Below, one piece after another: positions 1-31,157 of a DNA stretch of 32,000 nt. The position numbers and the translations under genes are program-made. The stretch is from Planctopirus limnophila DSM 3776 (GTDB taxonomy: Bacteria; Planctomycetota; Planctomycetia; Planctomycetales; Planctomycetaceae): the NCBI RefSeq assembly GCF_000092105.1, contig NC_014148.1, forward strand, positions 2,070,001 through 2,102,000, written 5' to 3'. The first letter of the stretch is position 1. Each line of letters starts with the position of its first letter. The notes under the pieces are model-generated. The model ran no database searches. It was not told the origin of the DNA and worked only from the letters and a program-made list of their open reading frames with translations.

Positions 1-304
1 AGGTGGAGCCGTTATCGCTTTGCTTAAACCCTTCCCAGTTGCCAGTGGGGTCGAGGTTCCAATCCTGCTTGAACGCGGTGGATGCCAGAGCGGTTTGGGT
101 GCCGTTGAGTGTGCCGCGGTGGGCGGTCTTTAACCGCTGGAGGCCGTCGTAGGTGTAGAGCCAGTCGTATTGGGCACTGTGGGCGGTGGCGATAGGGTTC
201 TTCCGCCAGATGCGGTTCGAGGCGCGGTCGTAGCCGTACTTGATGCGGTCGAGATCGGTCCCCGCTTTGTGCCAGCGGTTGTCCTTCACGCGGCCAAAGC
301 GATC
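1..304 (-). pseudogene. rhs core fragment (third rhs copy). It runs off the left edge and its 5' part is deleted relative to the 1055..3328 paralog
   Basis: nt 1-304 align collinearly with 2548-2857 (14 mismatches in the first 100 nt by hand count, one 6-nt indel). The minus-strand translation is YD/RHS-repeat sequence: FGRVKDNRWHKAGTDLDRIKYGYDRASNRIWRKNPIATAHSAQYDWLYTYDGLQRLKTAHRGTLNGTQTALASTAFKQDWNLDPTGNWEGFKQSDNGST. Homology then jumps to about 3258-3418, so about 400 nt of the paralog are missing. The conserved start position (GTG 358-360) is out of frame with the core and hits a stop after 24 codons. Confidence 0.6.
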
Positions 305-310
305 GAGGCG

Positions 311-348
311 GAAAAAGCCACTGCTGGAGGATTAGCCCCAGCAGTGGG
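311..348 (-). terminator. terminator-like hairpin inside the rhs junction element (copy A)
   Basis: 10-bp stem CCACTGCTGG (318-327) / CCAGCAGTGG (338-347) with a 10-nt loop. On the minus strand the stem is followed by CTTTTTCC. It lies 3' of the 523..1080 ORF and is positionally homologous to 3274-3303. Confidence 0.5.
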
Positions 349-413
349 AAAAAACTTCACGTCAATTGTCAAAGAGCAGAGAGATCAGGATGGAGGAGGC
401 AAAACTTCTCGTG

Positions 414-463
414 CCGCTGGCACACAGGTCGCTCGATAACGAACAACCTGTGCCACCGAGCGG
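414..463 (-). repeat. conserved imperfect hairpin, rhs junction element copy A
   Basis: GGCACACAGGT (419-429) and ACCTGTGCC (446-454) form a stem with a 2-nt AC bulge. A basal helix CCGCT/AGCGG extends it. The loop contains CGCTCG. The same core occurs at 3375-3409, 6753-6788 and 7312-7349. Confidence 0.7.
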
Positions 464-522
464 GTGGAAAATGTGGTGGTAGGCAACTGAGAAACAAAGG
501 CAGGATGTAGCCTGCACTACGG

Positions 523-1080
523 TTAATCTCTCTCACCAATTTTGCCGTGTTTGTTAACTTCCAAAACGAATCTGCTTTCTCTTTCGGTTGTAATTTCGGC
601 TATCGCACGCTGAGCGTATGAAACAAGAGTTTCATGCGATACTCCCGATCGACTGGCAGAATTCCATCTGTTTTCTATTTCCGCGGAAGCATCATTGAAG
701 CCTCTTTCATAAAACTCAAACATCACGCCGTTGGATTGACCCGAATGAAACAAAAGTCGTTCGGTATTTCCTGCAATCTTGTTTTCAAGCGACGCTTGCC
801 ATCCATAGAAGTGGCCTTCATACCAGTCAGATTTTCCAAGACGAAGAATTGGTGGCTTCTGTCCATCTTTGTCGCTATTTGATACGATACTAGTTGGAGG
901 GATGTCTGAGGGAGCTGTTAAATCTTGCGGATAGGAGAAAATGATTTCTCGGTCTTCTCCTCGTGTCTGTCTGCCGCTTGACGTGTCGCATCCTGTCTGT
1001 ATGAACGCTGTCAGCGCAAACGCCATTGAAAGACATCGGCCATATTTACAAAAACTATTTACTCTTGTTTGCATTCGCAT
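523..1080 (-). CDS. putative exported lipoprotein, candidate immunity protein for the 1055..3328 Rhs tip
   Basis: The ORF lies directly after the rhs stop. From the internal Met at 1080 the N-terminus reads MRMQTRVNSFCKYGRCLSMAFALTAFIQTGC: a basic n-region, a hydrophobic core and a Cys, which is lipobox-like though not canonical at position -3. The region is AT-rich like the toxin tip. The start overlaps the rhs 3' end by 26 nt. No family was recognised. Confidence 0.55.
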   Translation of the reverse strand: MRMQTRVNSFCKYGRCLSMAFALTAFIQTGCDTSSGRQTRGEDREIIFSYPQDLTAPSDIPPTSIVSNSDKDGQKPPILRLGKSDWYEGHFYGWQASLENKIAGNTERLLFHSGQSNGVMFEFYERGFNDASAEIENRWNSASRSGVSHETLVSYAQRAIAEITTERESRFVLEVNKHGKIGERD

Positions 1081-3328
1081 CTCCCCATTCGGCTTGGCAA
1101 ACTGCACAGTAGGCAATCTCATTGAATCGCTTGTTATCTTCGTAAGATTTGATCTTCTCCTTAAACTCTTTGTCATTCTTCCTGAGAACTACCATTGGGT
1201 TAACGTTTCCAAATCCATTGTTTGCGTGATACCAAAGTGCATCATCAGGGTTGAAGTAGAAAAAGTCAAAATTGAAGTAGTCTCCAGCTGATGCAGGGGG
1301 CCTTGAGAGAATAGCGTTCCAGGTTTTCTTGCCATTCAGCGAGAATTTTCCATTTTTTTCATTAATTGCAATTTCACGAGCCCCTCCTGGAGTGCCGTTG
1401 TTCCAGACAATGGCTATCAATCTCGCTTCAGTTCTTGTTCCGTAAATGTTTGTTCCAAATCCTTTGCAACATTCTTTGGTTTCGTTCATGTCCTTCATTC
1501 GCAGTCGCGCCTGTTCAGGATCACGGTAGCAATGTTGTAAATCTGGCAAAAACCCGTCTCGGAGCTCGAATCCGCTTGGGTTGAGTGTGTATCCGGGGAA
1601 GCCGAGCATGCAGAAAGTTACGCCAATGCAGCCGGCTTGTGCAGTATTTATAAAGTGGCCCTTTGGGATTGATGTTTTCACAAGTTGAAAGTTTTTATTC
1701 TGCCATTGAGATAGGGTATCCCATGGGAGCAGATTTTCTGACCATTCGTCCCACCATTGATCAACTGTCAAAACATCAAGACCATAAGGGTCAATAGTGT
1801 TCAATTGATTGACACGCTCATAGAGGGAGAGTCCGTCGACGTATCTCAATGGATCTCTTCGTGTCCATTTCCCTAACTTGAAATGCAAACATCGGTAGCG
1901 GGAATCATAAATCTTTGTGTGCAGATCGTAATGTGAGCCTCCGTATGCGACGATCCATTTGTTTGTGTTAGCTGAAGATGAGAAAATTAGATCTAGTTGT
2001 TGAACTTCCCCATACGGATCATACTCAAACCGTTCTTGTACCTCGCCCGCTTCATCCACAATGGTGGTAACATTCCAATTGGCGTCCTGGAGTGCGTAGA
2101 GACGTTCGTCGAGTGTCGTGGTGGTCGTCCGGTCTCTGAGGAGGCAGTCGTCGATGTATCTCAGGCCCCAGATGTGGTGCTGGCTGAGGGTGGAACTGGA
2201 ATCTGTGCGTTCTTCGATGTTCTGCCAACCGTCCGTGAAGTAGGCGTGAGTCGTTTCATCCAGCACTCCGGAGTCGTAGTTTTTGACAACCACTCGGAAG
2301 TTTCTGGCGTCGTACTGGTACTCGGCGACCGTTTCCAGCGTGCTGGAGACTTCTTCCTCCAGTTTGACCAACCGGTTCCAGGCGTCGTAGGTGGCGGTGT
2401 AGGCTTCGTCCATCTGCTTGGGTTTGGGGATGGTGGTCATGTTGCCGACGGCGTTGTAGGCCGGGTCGGCCCAGGCACTGCCCACCGTGTTGGTGATGTC
2501 GGTGATTTCGTTCACCGGGTTAGCCGTGCGTTCTTGTTCCATGCTCCAGGTGGAGCCGTTGTCACTCTGCTTAAATCCTTCCCAGTTGCCGGTGGGGTCG
2601 AGGTTCCAGTCCTGTTTGAAGGCCGTGCTGGTGAGAGCGGTTTGGGTGTTGTTGAGGGTGCCACGGTTGGCGGTCTTGAGGCGTTGGAGGCCGTCGTAGG
2701 TGTAGAGCCAGTCGTATTCGGCACTGTTGGCCGTGGCGACGGGGTTCTTCCGCCAGATGCGGTTCGAGGCTCGGTCGTAGCCGTACTGGATGCGGGAGAG
2801 GTCAGCGTTGGTCGAGGTGTTGTACCAGCGGGAGTCCTTCACCCGGCCAAAGCGATCCAGGCCGGTGTAGATGTCGCCCGTGTCGGGATCGTTGGAAACG
2901 CCTGCCAGCGTGTACCGCAGGTTCGGTTGGGGGCTGGTTTGCTGGATGACGCCTGCCAGGCCGAGGAATTCGTAATCGACCAGGTGGGTCAGGGAGAAAT
3001 CGTCGTCGATGATGGAGCCGATGCGGCTGAGGGCATCGTTGATTTCGTTGGTGGTGCCGTAGCCGTAGGTGAGTTCCCGACCGTTGGGGTAAGTGAGGCT
3101 CAATGGGCGCACTGTGTTGGTGCTGCCGTTGGCATAACCTCGCTGCACGCTGGGTGTGGTGCCGGTATTCACGGTGCCGTCATGCTCCTGGAACGTCTGG
3201 ATCGACTGCCCAAAATCATTGTACGTGAACTGCACCTGATTAACAGCATTTCCTGAGGTGGCGGCATCGAAAACCCCTGCCGGAGAGTGATCCCCGGCAG
3301 GGGGAGTAAACTTCATGTCGATTGTCAA
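1055..3328 (-). CDS. RHS repeat protein with a variable C-terminal toxin tip and no N-terminal domain
   Basis: YD-type repeats run throughout (YGYDRASNRIW, YTYDGLQRL, YQYDARNFRVV). RHS core end: YDSRYRCLHFKLGKWTRRDPLRYVDGLSLYERVNQLNTIDPYGL. A 240-aa unrelated tip follows. The start is uncertain (TTG 3328 or ATG 3316), and codons 8-20 coincide with a terminator-like hairpin. Confidence 0.9.
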   Translation of the reverse strand: MTIDMKFTPPAGDHSPAGVFDAATSGNAVNQVQFTYNDFGQSIQTFQEHDGTVNTGTTPSVQRGYANGSTNTVRPLSLTYPNGRELTYGYGTTNEINDALSRIGSIIDDDFSLTHLVDYEFLGLAGVIQQTSPQPNLRYTLAGVSNDPDTGDIYTGLDRFGRVKDSRWYNTSTNADLSRIQYGYDRASNRIWRKNPVATANSAEYDWLYTYDGLQRLKTANRGTLNNTQTALTSTAFKQDWNLDPTGNWEGFKQSDNGSTWSMEQERTANPVNEITDITNTVGSAWADPAYNAVGNMTTIPKPKQMDEAYTATYDAWNRLVKLEEEVSSTLETVAEYQYDARNFRVVVKNYDSGVLDETTHAYFTDGWQNIEERTDSSSTLSQHHIWGLRYIDDCLLRDRTTTTTLDERLYALQDANWNVTTIVDEAGEVQERFEYDPYGEVQQLDLIFSSSANTNKWIVAYGGSHYDLHTKIYDSRYRCLHFKLGKWTRRDPLRYVDGLSLYERVNQLNTIDPYGLDVLTVDQWWDEWSENLLPWDTLSQWQNKNFQLVKTSIPKGHFINTAQAGCIGVTFCMLGFPGYTLNPSGFELRDGFLPDLQHCYRDPEQARLRMKDMNETKECCKGFGTNIYGTRTEARLIAIVWNNGTPGGAREIAINEKNGKFSLNGKKTWNAILSRPPASAGDYFNFDFFYFNPDDALWYHANNGFGNVNPMVVLRKNDKEFKEKIKSYEDNKRFNEIAYCAVCQAEWGDANANKSK
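1058..1777 (-). other. variable C-terminal (toxin) domain of the 1055..3328 Rhs protein
   Basis: It begins right after DPYGL (the Leu codon is at 1778-1780). It is visibly AT-richer than the core. It contains NTAQAGCIGVTFCM and, further on, DALWYHANNGFGN. No family was recognised by eye. Confidence 0.7.
3268..3304 (-). terminator. terminator-like hairpin inside the rhs junction element (copy B)
   Basis: Stem CCCCTGCCGG (3274-3283) / CCGGCAGGGG (3294-3303) with a 10-nt loop. On the minus strand it is followed by TTTTCGAT. Relative to copy A, two stem positions differ, and both arms changed so that pairing is preserved. Confidence 0.5.
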
Positions 3329-3360
3329 AGAGCAGAACGATCAAGATAGAGTAGCTAAAA

Positions 3361-3418
3361 CCACATGTGTTGTTGGCACACAGGTCGCTCGTAGACTACA
3401 ACCTGTGCCACTATGTGG
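3361..3418 (-). repeat. conserved imperfect hairpin, rhs junction element copy B
   Basis: GGCACACAGGT (3375-3385) / ACCTGTGCC (3401-3409) with a CGCTCG loop start. The basal helix CCACAT (3361-3366) / ATGTGG (3413-3418) differs in sequence from copy A but is still complementary. Confidence 0.7.
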
Positions 3419-3468
3419 ATGTTTGTGTGGATATTGACGCAATCTCAAATAGTAAGACAACAAAGTGA

Positions 3469-3732
3469 TTACATGCAAAACCAAACCGTTGTTGATATAT
3501 TCCACAGAATCCAAAAAACAATCTGCGTACTTGATGTTTTAAGAAACCATTTGCTGGTTGTTTGTGCGTAATACAAACATGTTATTATATATGCTACTTG
3601 AGGAAGTAAGAGGATCAACTTGAGTTGCAGTGCGTATAGCACTGATTGTGTTGACGGAGATGGACGATTTGCTGTAATTACTGTCGCAGCATCAATGAGA
3701 AACGTCTGGCAAATCGTCCATATAAGCAGCAT
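3469..3732 (-). CDS. small hydrophobic protein (87 aa), possible membrane immunity protein; could be spurious
   Basis: ATG start 39 nt after the stop of 3772..4149, on the same strand. There are three hydrophobic stretches: LLIWTICQTFLIDAATVI, LILLLPQVAYIITCLYYA and QIVFWILWNISTTVWFCM. It lies in the most AT-rich part of the island and ends 57 nt before hairpin B. Confidence 0.3.
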   Translation of the reverse strand: MLLIWTICQTFLIDAATVITANRPSPSTQSVLYALQLKLILLLPQVAYIITCLYYAQTTSKWFLKTSSTQIVFWILWNISTTVWFCM

Positions 3733-3771
3733 AGATTCACTTCTTTCATTAATGCATGGTTGCGAATATGT

Positions 3772-4149
3772 CTATTCAGTGATGTTAACGCCACCGTATA
3801 ATTGAAACCATAGCTCGGGGCAGGGTGGTCGATGTTTCTTAAGACCAAAACTAGAGAAATTAAATATATTCCAGCTCATGTTTCCTGTTTCCATCGTCGG
3901 GACGCCTAATCCAGTCTGTCCACAATGTCCGTTGCGTCCATATCGCTCGTACCATGATGTGGCTGTAATACAGTTGTTAATACCCGTGTAGTATGGGTAT
4001 GGGAATTCGAAATTCTCCACAGCGTTTTGATTTTCCATCCATGCTTTAATGAGAAGCATATCATCCAATTCATCAGAAGCATACTCACCAAAGTTGATGT
4101 AGGGGGGGTCTTCCTTCTCCGCTTTGAATGCCCCAAGTGTTATTGCCAA
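3772..4149 (-). CDS. ORF overlapping the 3' end of rhs 4085..6757: either a frame-shifted continuation of the toxin tip or a separate immunity ORF
   Basis: It lies in the +1 frame relative to the rhs. That frame is open from 4221, but the only starts are TTG 4149 or ATG 4059. A C7 run (minus strand, 4102-4108) sits in the overlap, and 7->6 would fuse the two frames. The product has Cys/His and aromatic-rich sequence (NGHCGQTG, FPYPYYTG). Confidence 0.4.
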   Translation of the reverse strand: MAITLGAFKAEKEDPPYINFGEYASDELDDMLLIKAWMENQNAVENFEFPYPYYTGINNCITATSWYERYGRNGHCGQTGLGVPTMETGNMSWNIFNFSSFGLKKHRPPCPELWFQLYGGVNITE

Positions 4150-6757
4150 ACAGTGGGGCTTGAAAATGTAGTTCAGTGTATTGTTTGTTGGGAATGCCTT
4201 TTGTAAGCATGCCGTGATCTACGTTTAGGCGAATAAATTCATGGAGCTGAAAGCAGGTTTGCCTTCCGGGAGCATTTGGGTCAACGCGGATTATTCTGTT
4301 GAGGTCACACTGGGGTGTCGTTGGTGTGTGAACTTTTACACGCGGTTTAATAGGTTCGGTCTTTAATGTGTAATGATCAGCGTACCCTGTGCACCATATT
4401 CCGTACATAGTCCAGTCAAAATATGGTTCTTTCAATCCGCTAGGGTCTTTTCTCGAGGTAGAGGTATTTCGTGTATATCGCAGGAGTGAGGTGTCGCCTC
4501 CGCTAAACTCAATCGGATCTTCGCTTACGAATCTTCCCACTTCGGCGTCGTACCATCTGGCGCGGTACCAGTGGAGGCCCGTGTCTTCGTCGTATTCTCT
4601 CGCCGTGAAGGTATAATGCGGGAGGGGTTGGCCTGCTGTGCTGCCCGTGATTTGGCCGAAGGTGCTGTAGGTGAGGTGGTTGGTGACGGTGGTGGTACCC
4701 GCGTTGTGTTCGGCCACGTCGCGGATGGTGCCCAGGTGGTCGGCGAGGAGCCACTTGATGTTGCCAATGTCGTCTTCTTCGGCTAATGGCATGTCGATGC
4801 CGGGGCCGTGGAGGAATCGGGTGAGCAGGTCGCCGCTGTCATCGTGGATGAACACGCAGTCACTGGTGGTGCCTTTCGTGGTGGGGTCGAACGTGTAGTG
4901 GCGGATGTCGTTCCACGAGTTGTTGGCAGTCGAGTCCAGCTTGCGGGTAATGCGCTGGTTATGGATGTCGTAGGTGTAGGCCACTCGTTTCTGGGGCGTA
5001 TCGAGTGAGTCGCGGTGTTCGACTTGGGTCAGCCGGTTGCGGTGATCCCATGAATAGACCGTATAGTCGCCGGTGGCGACTTCCGTTTTACGGATGCGGT
5101 TGCCTTCGTCGTCGTAGAGGTATTCGTAGGTGCCGTCTTCCAGAAGCTGGTTGTTGGTGCCGGTGATGTAGCCGGTGTTCGTGCGGTTGCCGGTGAGGTC
5201 GTAGCTGTAGGCTTCATCGGGGGTCGTGGGGTGATCGGCGGCGGTGAGTTGGGCAATGGCGTCGTAGTCGTAAGCTGAGGTACCATCCAGAGTTTCATGG
5301 CTGGAGAGGCGGCGGTCGGCATCGTAGGTGTAGTAGTGCTGGGCCAGGATGGTGGCCGATTGAGCGTGCTTCAACTGCACGATCCGGCCATAATCGTCGA
5401 ACGTGAACGCGCTGTCGGCCAGTGAGGTGCCGCCTGAAACTTGTTCAAAGCGGCTGATGGCATGGGGGCGGTTCAGTACGTCGTAGCCGAACTCGACACG
5501 CTTTTCGGTGACCGAGTTACCGCCCACACTTCCCTGCTGTGTGATCTGCGTGGGCTGCCCCAACGCATTGTGGAGGTAGCTGTTGGTGAAATCGTCGCTG
5601 CTTTCGACTTGTGCCGCCAGCGAGAGGCGATTGCCAGCGCGGTTCCAGTCAGCCGTCAAGAGAACGTGGGGAACATCGTCGGTGCCGTCGTTATCGACCG
5701 TGGCGATGTGGCCGAAAAGGTCGTAAGTGTAGGCATACGCGGAGACATCGTCGGAAATCGACTGCAAGCGTCCTTCGGCATCGTAAGTTCGGCTGACGGT
5801 GTTCACAGTGCTGCCGCCGGTCTTCCAGAGTTCGGTGTCGGGTCGCCCGAGATCATCATGAACAAGTTGAATGACTCGTCCATTGCGATCGGTGCGTGTC
5901 TCTAAGTGACCAGCCGTGTTGTACGCGAAGAATCGCGATTTCCCCAAGGAATTTTCTTCTTCAATCACCCGGCCCACGCCATCGTAGCGCCAGGTGGTCG
6001 TGTTTTCTTCGGCATCAGTCAGCGAGAGTTGATGACCGGCGATATTGTAAGCCAGCGTTGTGACGGCGTCTCTTGCATCAGTGATGGTGAGGACGCGACC
6101 CAAGCCGTCGTAGGTCATCGACTCCGTTAATGCGAGGTTCGCCGGTGTGCGCTGAAGCACGTTTCCACTTTGATCGTACCAGACTTCATCGACCATCGCC
6201 GCACCCACGCTGCCGGTGGTGGGGTTGACGGCGTAGCGGCGGGATTGGTAGGGGCGGCCGAGGGGGTCGTAATCGGTTTCGATGCGGCTTAAGAGTGTGC
6301 CGGTGGGGGAGCCGTCGTAGCGTTCGCTGCGGATGAGTTGGCCGCGGAAGTCGTAGGTTTCTTTCTGGCAGAAGTTTTCTTCGCCCTGGGTGACGAGGCG
6401 GCGGCCACGGTAATCGTAGCTATACGTTGTTTCGCGCGTGGTGCTGCTATCGACGTGTTGCGTCGAGAGAATCGGGCGGCCCGCGATGTCGTATTCGGCT
6501 GCGGAGACGAGGACCGTATCATTTGACGGCCCCTCAGTGAGGGGTTGGGCCGCGGCGGGATCTGAATGGCTCGCAGAGAATGTCTCCCGCGAGCGGAAGG
6601 CCGACAAGCTGTCAATGGCGGAAGCGCCTGTGGAGCCTTGCTTAAGGAAGATTCCTGAAACATACCGCTCCGCTGCCCCACTGCCAGTGGTCGAGTCGTA
6701 TTCAGTAGTCTGGAAAAGTCCGGAGTTCGTTCGCAGGACAATGTCGCAGGGTGGCAC
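4085..6757 (-). CDS. RHS repeat protein with a variable C-terminal toxin tip; appears N-terminally truncated
   Basis: Dense YD repeats (YSYDYRGRRL, YDPLGRPYQS, MTYDGLGRVL, WRYDGVGRVI, YTYDADRRL, YLYDDEGNRI). Core end: YRARWYDAEVGRFVSEDPIEFSGGDTSLLRYTRNTSTSRKDPSGL. An AT-rich tip of 115 aa follows (4088..4432). The GTG start at 6757 comes six codons after an in-frame TAG, lies inside hairpin C, and reads straight into repeat sequence. Confidence 0.9.
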   Translation of the reverse strand: MPPCDIVLRTNSGLFQTTEYDSTTGSGAAERYVSGIFLKQGSTGASAIDSLSAFRSRETFSASHSDPAAAQPLTEGPSNDTVLVSAAEYDIAGRPILSTQHVDSSTTRETTYSYDYRGRRLVTQGEENFCQKETYDFRGQLIRSERYDGSPTGTLLSRIETDYDPLGRPYQSRRYAVNPTTGSVGAAMVDEVWYDQSGNVLQRTPANLALTESMTYDGLGRVLTITDARDAVTTLAYNIAGHQLSLTDAEENTTTWRYDGVGRVIEEENSLGKSRFFAYNTAGHLETRTDRNGRVIQLVHDDLGRPDTELWKTGGSTVNTVSRTYDAEGRLQSISDDVSAYAYTYDLFGHIATVDNDGTDDVPHVLLTADWNRAGNRLSLAAQVESSDDFTNSYLHNALGQPTQITQQGSVGGNSVTEKRVEFGYDVLNRPHAISRFEQVSGGTSLADSAFTFDDYGRIVQLKHAQSATILAQHYYTYDADRRLSSHETLDGTSAYDYDAIAQLTAADHPTTPDEAYSYDLTGNRTNTGYITGTNNQLLEDGTYEYLYDDEGNRIRKTEVATGDYTVYSWDHRNRLTQVEHRDSLDTPQKRVAYTYDIHNQRITRKLDSTANNSWNDIRHYTFDPTTKGTTSDCVFIHDDSGDLLTRFLHGPGIDMPLAEEDDIGNIKWLLADHLGTIRDVAEHNAGTTTVTNHLTYSTFGQITGSTAGQPLPHYTFTAREYDEDTGLHWYRARWYDAEVGRFVSEDPIEFSGGDTSLLRYTRNTSTSRKDPSGLKEPYFDWTMYGIWCTGYADHYTLKTEPIKPRVKVHTPTTPQCDLNRIIRVDPNAPGRQTCFQLHEFIRLNVDHGMLTKGIPNKQYTELHFQAPLFGNNTWGIQSGEGRPPLHQLW

Positions 6758-6788
6758 AGGCTGCTTGTCCGCGAGCTACCTGTGTGCC
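6753..6788 (+). repeat. junction hairpin copy C (loop orientation flipped)
   Basis: GGCACAGG (6753-6760) / ACCTGTGTGCC (6778-6788). The loop ctgcttgtccgcgagct carries GCGAGC next to the right arm, which is the reverse orientation of the CGCTCG seen next to the left arm in copies A, B and D. Confidence 0.6.
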
Positions 6789-6937
6789 GAAGGCAAAAGA
6801 AGTTTGGCTGCTGCAAGCACTGCAATACGAGTCTCTGATGATCTCAGGTGACTCAAGCAGATTTGCGGCTCTGCCAGTCCCCTCCTGTGGCGAAGCCACC
6901 CAAGTAGAAATCATAATCTCAATCGGGGCCACCTGCG
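6778..6937. repeat. repeated intergenic unit X (about 155-160 nt)
   Basis: Collinear with 7339-7491. Shared blocks: ACCTGTGTGCC..AGGCAAAAGA, GACTCAaGCAG, CCTCcTGTGG, and the distal block CCACCcaaGTAGAAATCAtaATcTCAAtCGGGGCCACCTGCG (6896-6937). Confidence 0.7.
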
Positions 6938-6989
6938 GCATAAGCACCTTGGAAGACATTAGAGTTTACCTTGGGTATTCTCCAAGCAA

Positions 6990-7235
6990 TCATTCAATCG
7001 TGTAGGTAATTCCGCGTGCGGTCAATTCATCACAAATAGATCTTACAATTCGATCATGGTCTGCTTTAGTAAAGACATCACTCTCATGAGGTGGAAGCCA
7101 TCCTGTTAACGAAGATTCAAATATATCGAAATCTGTCTGATTGCCATTAACACGCATTAATGCTTCTACAGAAATTTTGGCTTGCCGCCCACCTTCTTCG
7201 AAAGTGATAGCCCCGGTTGTCATGTGGACAATCAT
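6990..7235 (-). CDS. small protein (81 aa; 77 aa from the second Met), orphan immunity-like
   Basis: Clean ORF in an AT-rich segment. Sequence: MTTGAITFEEGGRQAKISVEALMRVNGNQTDFDIFESSLTGWLPPHESDVFTKADHDRIVRSICDELTARGITYTIE. Its size, position in an rhs island and the W-PP...I...I...L...GI pattern recall small alpha+beta polymorphic-toxin immunity proteins. This is from memory only and was not searched. Confidence 0.55.
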   Translation of the reverse strand: MIVHMTTGAITFEEGGRQAKISVEALMRVNGNQTDFDIFESSLTGWLPPHESDVFTKADHDRIVRSICDELTARGITYTIE

Positions 7236-7301
7236 TTTAAGTTCTCACTAGTTACACATTGCAATTGTTTGCCACGAATTTACTTCATGATGGAATAGCA
7301 C

Positions 7302-7360
7302 CTTTGCCTATGGCACACATGTCGCTCGTCTGCAAGTCACCTGTGTGCCATAGGCAAAAG
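7302..7360 (-). repeat. junction hairpin copy D (longest, near-perfect palindrome)
   Basis: CTTTGCCTATGGCACACATGT (7302-7322) pairs with ACCTGTGTGCCATAGGCAAAAG (7339-7360). The 16-nt loop is cgctcgtctgcaagtc. Confidence 0.75.
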
Positions 7361-7491
7361 ATGCATTGTTTCCAAAACTCTCGTGGGCACCTTAAAAGGT
7401 TTCATGTTCGGCTGACTCAGGCAGGCTGCTCATCCTCTGGTCGTTTCACCACCCCGGTAGAAATCAGAATTTCAACCGGGGCCACCCTGCG
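7339..7491. repeat. repeated intergenic unit Y
   Basis: Collinear with unit X. Distal block: CCACCCCGGTAGAAATCAGAATTTCAACCGGGGCCACCCTGCG (7449-7491), with internal dyad CCGGTAGAAAT/ATTTCAACCGG. Confidence 0.7.
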
Positions 7492-7607
7492 AATTCAGCA
7501 CGAGTTTAGAAATGCTTCACGGGACTCGGCAATCGCATCGGAAAACAAGGTTTCATTAATTGGTCCTAAAAGAATGACGAGAATCATTGAGTCCAGCCCC
7601 CTTTGTC

Positions 7608-7925
7608 TTACCCGATGGGTGACTCTTGCTTCGTTGGATTGTCAAATGGAAAGAGCGAACGAAATGCATAAGTTTGGACGCTAGGAAGTGCGTGATGCGA
7701 CAACTCTCTAAGACGCCGAATGAATGCAACAGTGTTGTATCTCTCTGCCGATATTTCGCTCGTAATTAATGTTCCAATATTGACGAGATCATCATTATCA
7801 GACAGCAACAGCCGCAGCAACTCTTCTACATCCCTGCTTTCACGAAACTGATCCACCAAACGTGTCAATCCATCGACTCCATCGGCTCCGCTGTTGACGA
7901 TTTCTAATACTTCATCTTCTATCAT
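7608..7925 (-). CDS. small helical-repeat protein (105 aa from Met at 7925), orphan immunity-like
   Basis: AT-rich ORF. Sequence: MIEDEVLEIVNSGADGVDGLTRLVDQFRESRDVEELLRLLLSDNDDLVNIGTLITSEI..., acidic and HEAT/ARM-like in pattern. No family was recognised with certainty. Confidence 0.55.
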   Translation of the reverse strand: MIEDEVLEIVNSGADGVDGLTRLVDQFRESRDVEELLRLLLSDNDDLVNIGTLITSEISAERYNTVAFIRRLRELSHHALPSVQTYAFRSLFPFDNPTKQESPIG

Positions 7926-8029
7926 TGTGTATCTTCTCCAGTGCACTTTTAAGTTTCTGAAGGAATCCCCTCTCCTATGCTATACGTCTTTCATGAAAGG
8001 TGCGTTCGAGTTCGGTTCCCTTTCAAGTT

Positions 8030-8072
8030 CACAGGGTGGCCCCGGTTGAAATCCTGATTTCGACCGAGGTGG
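8030..8072. repeat. third, inverted copy of the distal block of units X/Y
   Basis: CACAGGGTGGCCCCGGTTGAAATCCTGATTTCGACCGAGGTGG is the reverse complement of the consensus CCACC...GT.GAAATCA..ATTTCAACCGGGGCCACCCTG.G. Confidence 0.7.
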
Positions 8073-8210
8073 CTTTGCAGGGTGAACCAAATTGTGCGTC
8101 AAAGACAGTCCAGAGCTGCAAGCATGGCACAGAGTTGCCTGCATTTCACACTGAAAGTTTAAATTTCATGGATGCGTATGAGTCCATTCGATTCAGACCC
8201 ATGTTAACTG

Positions 8211-30820: not shown

Positions 30821-30887
30821 GCTGGGGGATGTGAATCACCAGCGAATTATCGCTATTTGATCCGGGTCTTTCTCACCCACTGTGTGC

Positions 30888-30909
30888 CACTGCTGGCTTG
30901 CCAGCAGTG
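30888..30909 (+). terminator. hairpin downstream of ftsH (no T tract)
   Basis: CACTGCTGG cttg CCAGCAGTG. It has the same stem sequence as the junction hairpin at 318-347. A second 10-bp hairpin, CCTTCTCCCG/CGGGAGAAGG, lies at 31015-31040 in the same convergent gap. Confidence 0.4.
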
Positions 30910-31157
30910 CTCCTCCCATGATGTCTTCGTCGTCAGACCTAATCGAAGACCCCACGGCGTCAGATGATCTTGTTCATCACACGCCAAGTACGTCCGAGCT
31001 CGCCCTCATCCCGACCTTCTCCCGTCGGAACGGGAGAAGGAGAAAAAACTCGTAGCAAGCTCCCAGCGTTTTTAGCCGGATTGCAGTCATGCCAATTCGG
31101 CTCTTTGCACACTACTGGTGAACTCAAAGACTTACGCGAGCGGGAGGATCTTCAGAT

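Follow-up and report, generated by a model that had tools for sequence, protein, structure and literature searches.

The sequence studied here has its closest described counterparts among intergenic repeats and among toxin loci. Repetitive extragenic palindromic (REP) units of E. coli, Pseudomonas and Stenotrophomonas are multi-copy intergenic sequences that carry a GT[AG]G foot, an imperfect GC-rich palindrome, an internal mismatch and a second stem. They occur as singlets or as inverted doublets (bacterial interspersed mosaic elements, BIMEs; REP doublets forming hairpins, REPINs), and they are accompanied by REP-associated tyrosine transposases (RAYTs, or TnpA_REP), which are Y1 enzymes of the HUH type. 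The second counterpart is found in the rhs loci of Enterobacteriaceae, where orphan toxin-immunity modules form by C-terminal displacement. Such loci have a main rhs gene and, downstream of it, core fragments truncated at the 5' end, each with a toxin tip and an immunity gene of its own; strains differ in their content. We know of no fixed junction element in enterobacterial rhs arrays. A conserved junction module in Planctopirus limnophila DSM 3776, described here from a 32,000-nt stretch of its genome (contig NC_014148.1, positions 2,070,001 to 2,102,000; hereafter the window), has features of both systems. Read 5' to 3' on the minus strand, it consists of a REP unit that contains 'hairpin 1', a spacer, and a GC-rich hairpin followed by a short T tract.

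The module is probably the composite 3' end of an rhs toxin-immunity cassette, built from a REP unit and a terminator-like hairpin. It occurs twice in the window, as copy A and copy B. An initial annotation of this DNA had reported ~150 nt of homology between 311-463 and 3268-3418, and this similarity is real. An ungapped comparison of 314-435 with 3270-3391 gives 78% identity, and a gapped alignment of the two copies has a mean column identity of 83% over 196 columns. The sequence GGCACACAGGT is present five times in the window, compared to 0.46 occurrences expected by chance. Both hairpins fold on the minus strand as originally described, with predicted free energies of -64.7 kcal/mol for copy A (z = -4.7) and -57.9 kcal/mol for copy B (z = -3.5).

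Hairpin 1 as a member of a dispersed REP family

Dispersal beside unrelated genes and REP architecture together identify hairpin 1 as one unit of a generic repeat of ~60 nt that is not specific to rhs genes. A scan for the hairpin arms, using one genome per species, recovered 78 loci, of which ~60 come from Planctomycetota (Planctopirus hydrillae, Planctomyces sp., Schlesneria, Lacipirellulaceae and many metagenome-assembled genomes, MAGs). The hairpin at these loci is embedded in a wider common consensus, and many of them lie at contig ends, as repeats do. An rhs gene is nearby in only one of the 78. Flanking genes instead span 114 different Pfam families, and the genes beside units at 28 loci are heterogeneous and found in every orientation, including tRNA synthetases, gyrB, queC and DUF1553 genes, among others. 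The dedicated, cassette-specific two-hairpin element proposed in the initial annotation thus falls, as regards hairpin 1, to the outcome that it had named for its own refutation.

Hairpin 1 is usually followed, 60-100 nt further on, by a second hairpin (CCCCGGTAG...CAACCGGGG), which is present three times in the window (6877-6936, 7430-7490 and 8031-8091). The two hairpins align as subfamilies of a single ~60-nt unit. In the orientation of this alignment, the unit comprises a tail (AACCTCYTGTGSC) with a small hairpin of its own, a main stem, a variable inner stem and an invariant CCACC head. The main stem swaps ACA/TGT for CCC/GGG between subfamilies. Pairing is retained in 96.8% of the alignment cells, compensatory changes on both sides occur at nine of 16 pairs, and all 500 shuffles score below the observed value.

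The architecture on the other strand can be compared directly with the REP rules that are quoted in PMC6006769, which place GT[AG]G 0-2 nt 5' of a hairpin composed of a stem, a bulge or mismatch, and a second stem. In the planctomycete unit, GTGG stands directly at the foot of the hairpin, and the corresponding CCAC columns show little or no variation. In copies A and B this position reads GGTGG/AGTGG-CACAGG. The foot is followed by a 7-bp basal stem (CACAGGT/ACCTGTG or CCCCGGT/ACCGGGG), a T·T (A·A) mismatch, an inner stem of 4-6 bp and a loop, with pairing maintained throughout. In copy A, for example, the minus strand carries the GTGG foot, the CACAGGT/ACCTGTG stem, the inner stem-loop and a GGCACGAGAAGTTTT tail. 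The two stems are joined by a 1x1 mismatch rather than by a bulge. An AC bulge had been assigned to the minus strand, where the bulge is in fact GU/UG and lies in the 3' arm; the plus strand is the one that reads AC. A covarying basal helix beneath hairpin 1, also proposed earlier, is not a feature of the element. The longest complementary run between 5' flank and 3' tail averages 3.05 in 56 family members, compared to 3.14 in re-paired controls.

A covariance model of the REP unit, R1, finds 150 units in 382 kb (~60 Planctomycetota loci). In the source genome the R1 scan covered the 32-kb window, where it identifies seven units, all of them within positions 1-8100 and hence in the rhs island. 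Copies A and B contain REP singlets. Inverted pairs of the REPIN or BIME kind span 6746-6936 and 7313-7490, and most MAG copies are also doublets. These two window doublets had been taken for further two-hairpin junction copies (C and D). Each is instead a tail-to-tail inverted arrangement of one minus-strand and one plus-strand unit. On dispersal, architecture and covariation, then, membership of hairpin 1 in a REP family is established. Compared to described REP and REPIN families, this one differs in its Planctomycetota host, in the conserved ~15-nt tail that forms a small covarying hairpin, in the pairing of its two subfamilies within doublets and in linkers of 60-100 nt. No Rfam family matches at gathering score anywhere in the window, and only noise appears at E <= 10 around both element types.

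The folding of REP units looks strand-asymmetric at first sight, since the GTGG strand is the more stable in 35 of 36 hairpin-1 units and in all 15 units of the second type. This asymmetry was discounted because the arms are fixed by the search pattern and because doublets place units on opposite strands. A separate observation concerns the REP tail AACCTCCTGTGG (window 401-415 and 7430-7445), which resembles the 3' end of 16S rRNA with its anti-Shine-Dalgarno CCUCC. The GTGG-foot strand therefore carries an AGGAGG-like motif just after the hairpin.

A candidate mobilizing enzyme is encoded beside REP units in the sister species. P. hydrillae contig LYDR01000143.1 contains an open reading frame (ORF) at 4013-4537 that matches Y1_Tnp (PF01797, E = 2.4e-18). 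Its product is a 175-aa IS200-like protein with DHVH...YIHENP motifs, resembling class-2 RAYTs. Seven REP units of both subfamilies lie at 2771-4666, within 2 kb around this gene, an arrangement of a Y1 HUH gene flanked by REPs that corresponds to a REPtron. A RAYT-type enzyme of this kind probably spreads and maintains the REP family at the DNA level.

The spacer and the GC hairpin

Unlike hairpin 1, the spacer and GC hairpin were found only at rhs junctions of Planctopirus-like genomes. Seven copies of the module were found. In addition to copies A and B, two (L083-1 and L083-2) come from a related strain represented by metagenome contig VFQR01001127, and one (L085) from P. hydrillae contig LYDR01000058.1; the others are L086 and, from Planctomyces sp., L087. 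A metagenome scan with the spacer returned one true relative, the L083 contig, and one chance match in coding sequence (L084). A pattern search with the GC arms found, beyond copy A, only L083-1 and a single look-alike (L021). Orphan rhs fragments in more distant bacteria (L088-L091) have no module upstream.

The components of the module have decayed unevenly. Of the seven copies, L083-2 and L086 have no REP unit, and three more (L083-1, L085 and L087) retain it in decayed form. Apart from two positions, A, B and L083-1 share an identical spacer, which is more conserved among them than either hairpin; in the other four copies the spacer has decayed, and in L086 it is unrecognizable. The GC stem is retained in L085, L086 and L087 despite a dead downstream rhs gene and a decayed spacer. 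Across six aligned copies 98.6% of the stem is paired and two pairs have changed on both sides. The two pairs that distinguish A from B keep their pairing through changes in both arms, as had been noticed earlier. One pair passes from U-A in A through U·G in L083-1 to C-G in B, and one conserved G·U on the gene-sense strand corresponds to a C·A mismatch on the opposite strand. The L087 stem has one further A·A mismatch. Loops of 10 nt had been assigned to both hairpins, but the stems extend to 12-13 bp and leave loops of only 6 and 4 nt.

Selection on structure rather than on an encoded peptide, as originally suggested, is borne out by these comparisons. The GC stem is paired in all seven copies, while four of them (L083-2, L085, L086 and L087) have no ATG or GTG start codon and a fifth, copy A, has it out of frame. 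The GTG-AAG-TTT frame of copy A does not continue into the rhs body and stops after 24 codons, and the rhs frame itself encounters a TAA inside the hairpin loop. The T5 run of copy A (310-317) leaves the GTG frame one T short, and T6 would restore V A F F R L D R F G R V K D. This one-T offset could be a homopolymer slip or a coincidence.

The L085 copy bears on which neighbor the stem serves. Here the hairpin sits between convergent genes and the downstream rhs gene is a relic of 35 codons. The stem persists beside this relic, so selection appears to act on the stem, on the gene-sense strand, in the service of the upstream side. The best reading of the GC hairpin is that it behaves as a predicted terminator or 3'-end hairpin, and in this respect the earlier suggestion of a terminator role holds up. 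Hairpins A and B both pass a terminator scan, in which no other terminator-like site on the gene strand is as strong as these two. They share with intrinsic terminators a GC-rich stem of 12-13 bp, a loop of 4-6 nt and a location after the last gene of a unit. The T run that follows on the sense strand has only three to five residues (five in copy A, four in B and in L086, and three in each remaining copy), and in B-type copies the T tract doubles as an rhs Phe codon. In copy B, for example, it runs into the rhs codons F-D-A-A-T.

Several other identities for these sequences were considered. The GC hairpin is not a further REP subfamily, as R1 has no match at 310-350 or 3269-3305. Nor do the spacer and GC hairpin appear to be a diverged REPIN linker or second unit, since no convincing homology extends past the ~30-nt REP tail. 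A sigma-54 reading of the hairpin arm (TGGCAC-N5-TTGC) was dismissed by eye because its spacing and -12 element are unfit. A promoter scan detected no sigma-70-like promoter at the spacer TTGACA. The spacer (352-380 and 3308-3336) does contain a direct repeat, TTGAC-AA-T(T/C)GAC, which is a candidate protein-binding site.

Sequences related to the stem also occur outside the rhs island. The stem of copy A had been said to recur downstream of ftsH, and its 10-nt arms are indeed found at 30886-30909; however, neither strand of this hairpin carries a T tract. The wider sequence (30876-30913) reads GCCACTGCTGG-CTT-GCCAGCAGTG and is preceded by CTGTGTGCCA, which matches a REP arm. Contigs with identical ftsH sequence from three independent public assemblies end at 30909-30913 and a fourth ends at 30880, as if assemblies break at this hairpin.

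Junction anatomy and the origin of the module

The locus has the composition of an orphan rhs array, with RHS_repeat matches, core ends of the form DPxGL, strain-variable content and an orphan Imm74 gene. Comparison with the L083 contig reveals how its junctions differ between strains. In L083, the homologue of the 890-aa rhs gene (Rhs890) extends further upstream and is the longer of the two. Its identity with window 6515-5028 is 94%; the sequences then diverge, although beyond this point the L083 gene is still rhs core at the protein level. There follow a toxin tip of its own, small ORFs and an A-type module, after which the similarity resumes at window 4968 with 90% identity. This difference is C-terminal displacement by its sequence signature: a segment consisting of core end, tip, immunity gene, REP unit, spacer and hairpin would have entered a resident core.

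The flanking genes of the two window copies had been described as unrelated. This is correct upstream, but downstream both copies enter homologous rhs core at different offsets. The core beside A (1-256) is 87% identical (87-88%) to that beside B at 2548-2803, and copy A joins it at LDRFGRVKD, which is aa 153 of the Rhs757-type core as counted from the module ATG of the B protein. In all, displaced rhs sequence starts at three core positions, LDRFGRVKD, FDAATSG and NIHNQRIT, and the three junctions lie ~8, 2-5 and 10-18 nt after the stem (2-18 nt overall). The sequence at the second of these positions, SFDAATLGSAVNQ (FDAATSG), is internal rhs core sequence, as P0008 shows. At its opposite, 5' end, the module is bounded by the GTGG foot of the REP unit. 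B-type modules are followed by a constant downstream fragment, while the upstream gene varies (ORF87, ORF274, ORF237 or an ankyrin-repeat protein), a pattern consistent with upstream tips having been replaced later. For this module, the 3' end of the upstream cassette is therefore a better reading than an element 'in front of' the next rhs gene or a leader of that gene. Overall, what the initial annotation observed was largely right, and its interpretation was partly so.

These results fit the following scheme. A REP singlet, as in copies A and B, would have become part of the 3' untranslated region of a cassette. The GC hairpin and its short T tract would form a terminator-like RNA stem-loop that ends transcription of the upstream toxin and immunity genes and thereby insulates the 5'-truncated orphan rhs fragment that follows. 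As rhs loci grow by C-terminal displacement, incoming segments carrying the module at their 3' ends would recombine into the rhs core already present, whose displaced remainder would then begin just after the hairpin. The module would recur because the loci grow in this way. Compared to enterobacterial orphan arrays, the differences are the presence of a conserved REP-spacer-hairpin sequence at each junction and a displaced fragment no more than 18 nt from the hairpin.

Several points weigh against this scheme. Intrinsic termination is not assured because the T tracts are short. The most conserved stretch of the module, the spacer TCTGCTCTTTGACAATYGACRTGAAGTTT, is left unexplained by the model. 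At two of the three independent junction types the rhs fragment shares its frame with the module ATG, which hints at expression. Simple illegitimate recombination does not predict that incoming segments end at a fixed 3' position. With regard to the REP component, copy number in the source genome as a whole is extrapolated from relatives, and the association with a RAYT gene is demonstrated in the sister species only.

It is unlikely that the module is a neutral relic whose similarity reflects recent duplication of a junction, or gene conversion, along with the rhs core. The 87-88% identity of the adjacent core is close to the 78-83% of the module, and every B-type copy has the identical FDAATSG junction, so the B-type copies descend from one event. 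However, a relic would not be expected to decay as unevenly as is seen here, where spacer and REP unit erode while the GC stem persists with compensatory and wobble changes. In addition, A-type modules are found at two core positions that are not homologous to each other, which means that the module did not move together with the sequence following it.

Slightly less probable still is that the module is a dedicated cassette-end or recombination signal that defines the 3' terminus of mobile rhs cassettes just after the hairpin. Such ends could be produced by processing of single-stranded DNA by a REP-recognizing HUH or RAYT enzyme, or from a transcript-derived copy that ends at the terminator. 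The short distances between stem and junction at three independent junction types, in the face of variable 5' truncation points, would be accounted for, as would the module boundary at the GTGG foot and a spacer conserved above either hairpin. The nearly invariant spacer, the in-frame ATG and the fixed 3' end leave this proposal a small probability. On the other side, independent junctions number only three, the window contains no integrase, reverse transcriptase or HUH gene, the REP unit is absent from two of the seven copies and decayed in three more, and orphan rhs fragments of more distant bacteria lack the module. Integron attC sites are likewise imperfect hairpins with extrahelical bases between promoterless cassettes. 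The module, inspected by eye, does not resemble their consensus (R'' RYYYAAC, R' GTTRRRY), and hairpin 1 is found genome-wide beside housekeeping genes; an attC identity was rejected on these grounds and for want of an integrase in the window.

The least probable of the alternatives is a 5' leader for orphan rhs genes, with a start codon, an MKF... peptide and the hairpin as an attenuator or translational control: it draws on an ATG in frame with rhs in B and L083-1 (376-aa ORF), on the single T that separates copy A from the same frame (T5 versus T6) and on a hairpin that begins ~13 nt after the ATG, but four of the seven copies have no start codon, copy A misses the rhs frame, the peptide is altered by the compensatory changes in the stem, no leader-bearing protein was found among 5.8 billion (concatenated three-variant query, E <= 10), the hairpin persists beside an rhs relic of only 35 codons, and the spacer lacks a recognizable sigma-70-like promoter. 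A composite cassette 3' end thus remains the preferred reading.

Layout of the island and significance

The rhs polymorphic-toxin island occupies the first 8.2 kb of the window and its genes are all on the minus strand. In 5' to 3' order on this strand, the junctions described above lie in the series Rhs890, two small ORFs, module B, Rhs757, ORF217, module A and rhs fragment (Table 1). The rest of the window contains DUF1559/N_methyl genes, ftsH, and genes for an S1 protein, an RND pump and a sigma factor.

Table 1. Coordinates of the rhs island, its repeats and related features, listed from the upstream edge of the island as read on the minus strand
Feature	Position	Strand	Remarks
Aminotransferase gene	9563-8211	-	Upstream edge of island
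REP singlet, CCCCGG type	8031-8091	-	R1 42.3 bits; at island edge, adjoins aminotransferase gene
ORF112	7608-7946		Between REP singlet and doublet D; REP units on both sides
Inverted REP doublet D	7313-7367 + 7430-7490	.	R1 26.7 and 66.3 bits
Orphan immunity gene, family Imm74	6990-7235	-	Pfam PF15603, E = 2.4e-32
Inverted REP doublet C, tail to tail	6746-6806 (hairpin-1 type) + 6877-6936 (CCCCGG type)	.	R1 63.2 and 39.5 bits
rhs gene Rhs890, 890 aa	4085-6757	-	Core ends DPSGL (~4447); 5' end abuts REP unit
Two small ORFs, 87 and 125 aa, after Rhs890 toxin tip	3469-4149	-	Presumed immunity or orphan genes
REP unit B, contains hairpin 1 of copy B	3357-3416	-	R1 38.5 bits, E = 9.9e-10
Spacer of copy B	3308-3336	-	Includes ATG at 3316-3314
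GC hairpin B, 13 bp (3274-3303), then TTTTC	3269-3303	-	Terminator scan
rhs gene B (Rhs757; 753 aa counted from module ATG)	1055-3316	-	RHS_repeat Pfam match; core ends DPYGL (~1792); C-terminal toxin tip 1055-1777
ORF217, 217 aa, downstream of Rhs757 toxin tip	523-1176	-	Presumed immunity gene
REP unit A, contains hairpin 1 of copy A	401-461	-	R1 56 bits, E = 5.9e-15
Spacer of copy A, TCTGCTCTTTGACAATTGACGTGAAGTTT	352-380	-	TTGAC-N2-TTGAC direct repeat; GTG aligned with ATG of copy B
GC hairpin A, 12 bp (318-347), then CTTTTTCC	310-347	-	Terminator-like site; terminator scan, pair counts
5'-truncated orphan rhs core fragment	1-309	-	Begins LDRFGRVKD; runs off window
Hairpin downstream of ftsH	30886-30909	.	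10-nt arms as GC hairpin A; weak REP-model score (E = 0.25)

Pfam has no match for the 87-aa and 125-aa ORFs or for ORF217, and an exact look-up of the Rhs757 protein returned no record. The Imm74 gene stands alone, without an adjoining toxin gene, and has an inverted REP doublet on each side. The 890-aa rhs ORF begins within a REP unit (window 6515-6806 region). This window copy looks 5'-truncated at, or replaced from, ~6515 because the L083 homologue continues upstream as rhs core (L083 1-300), and the island here may hold no intact main rhs gene.

Genes resembling those of defence or mobile elements adjoin rhs sequences on two other contigs. In P. hydrillae (L085, 5085-15117), the rhs relic with its B-type module abuts genes on the opposite strand that resemble a defence or mobile-element block and encode a UvrD helicase, DUF6946, an N6_N4 methyltransferase, Bro-N and ResIII. 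On an unrelated metagenome contig (L091, 5778-8127), an IS21-type pair (rve transposase and IstB) is located just downstream of an rhs orphan array.

A false lead has been removed, in that a covarying hairpin preceding rhs cassettes proves to be a genome-wide REP sequence rather than a cassette-specific RNA. At the same time, a REP/REPIN family that is not in Rfam, with a RAYT-like gene beside its units in P. hydrillae, is now documented across Planctomycetota, a phylum in which such repeats have been little described. For rhs biology the point is a modest one: each cassette of this lineage ends in a conserved module of REP unit and hairpin. If the distance of no more than 18 nt between hairpin and displaced fragment holds in more arrays, it would constrain how toxin tips are captured. 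Were the module a true cassette-end signal, it would represent integrase-free cassette capture for polymorphic toxins, in which a defined single-stranded or transcript-like intermediate, or cutting by an HUH enzyme, would explain why 3' ends are fixed while 5' ends vary.

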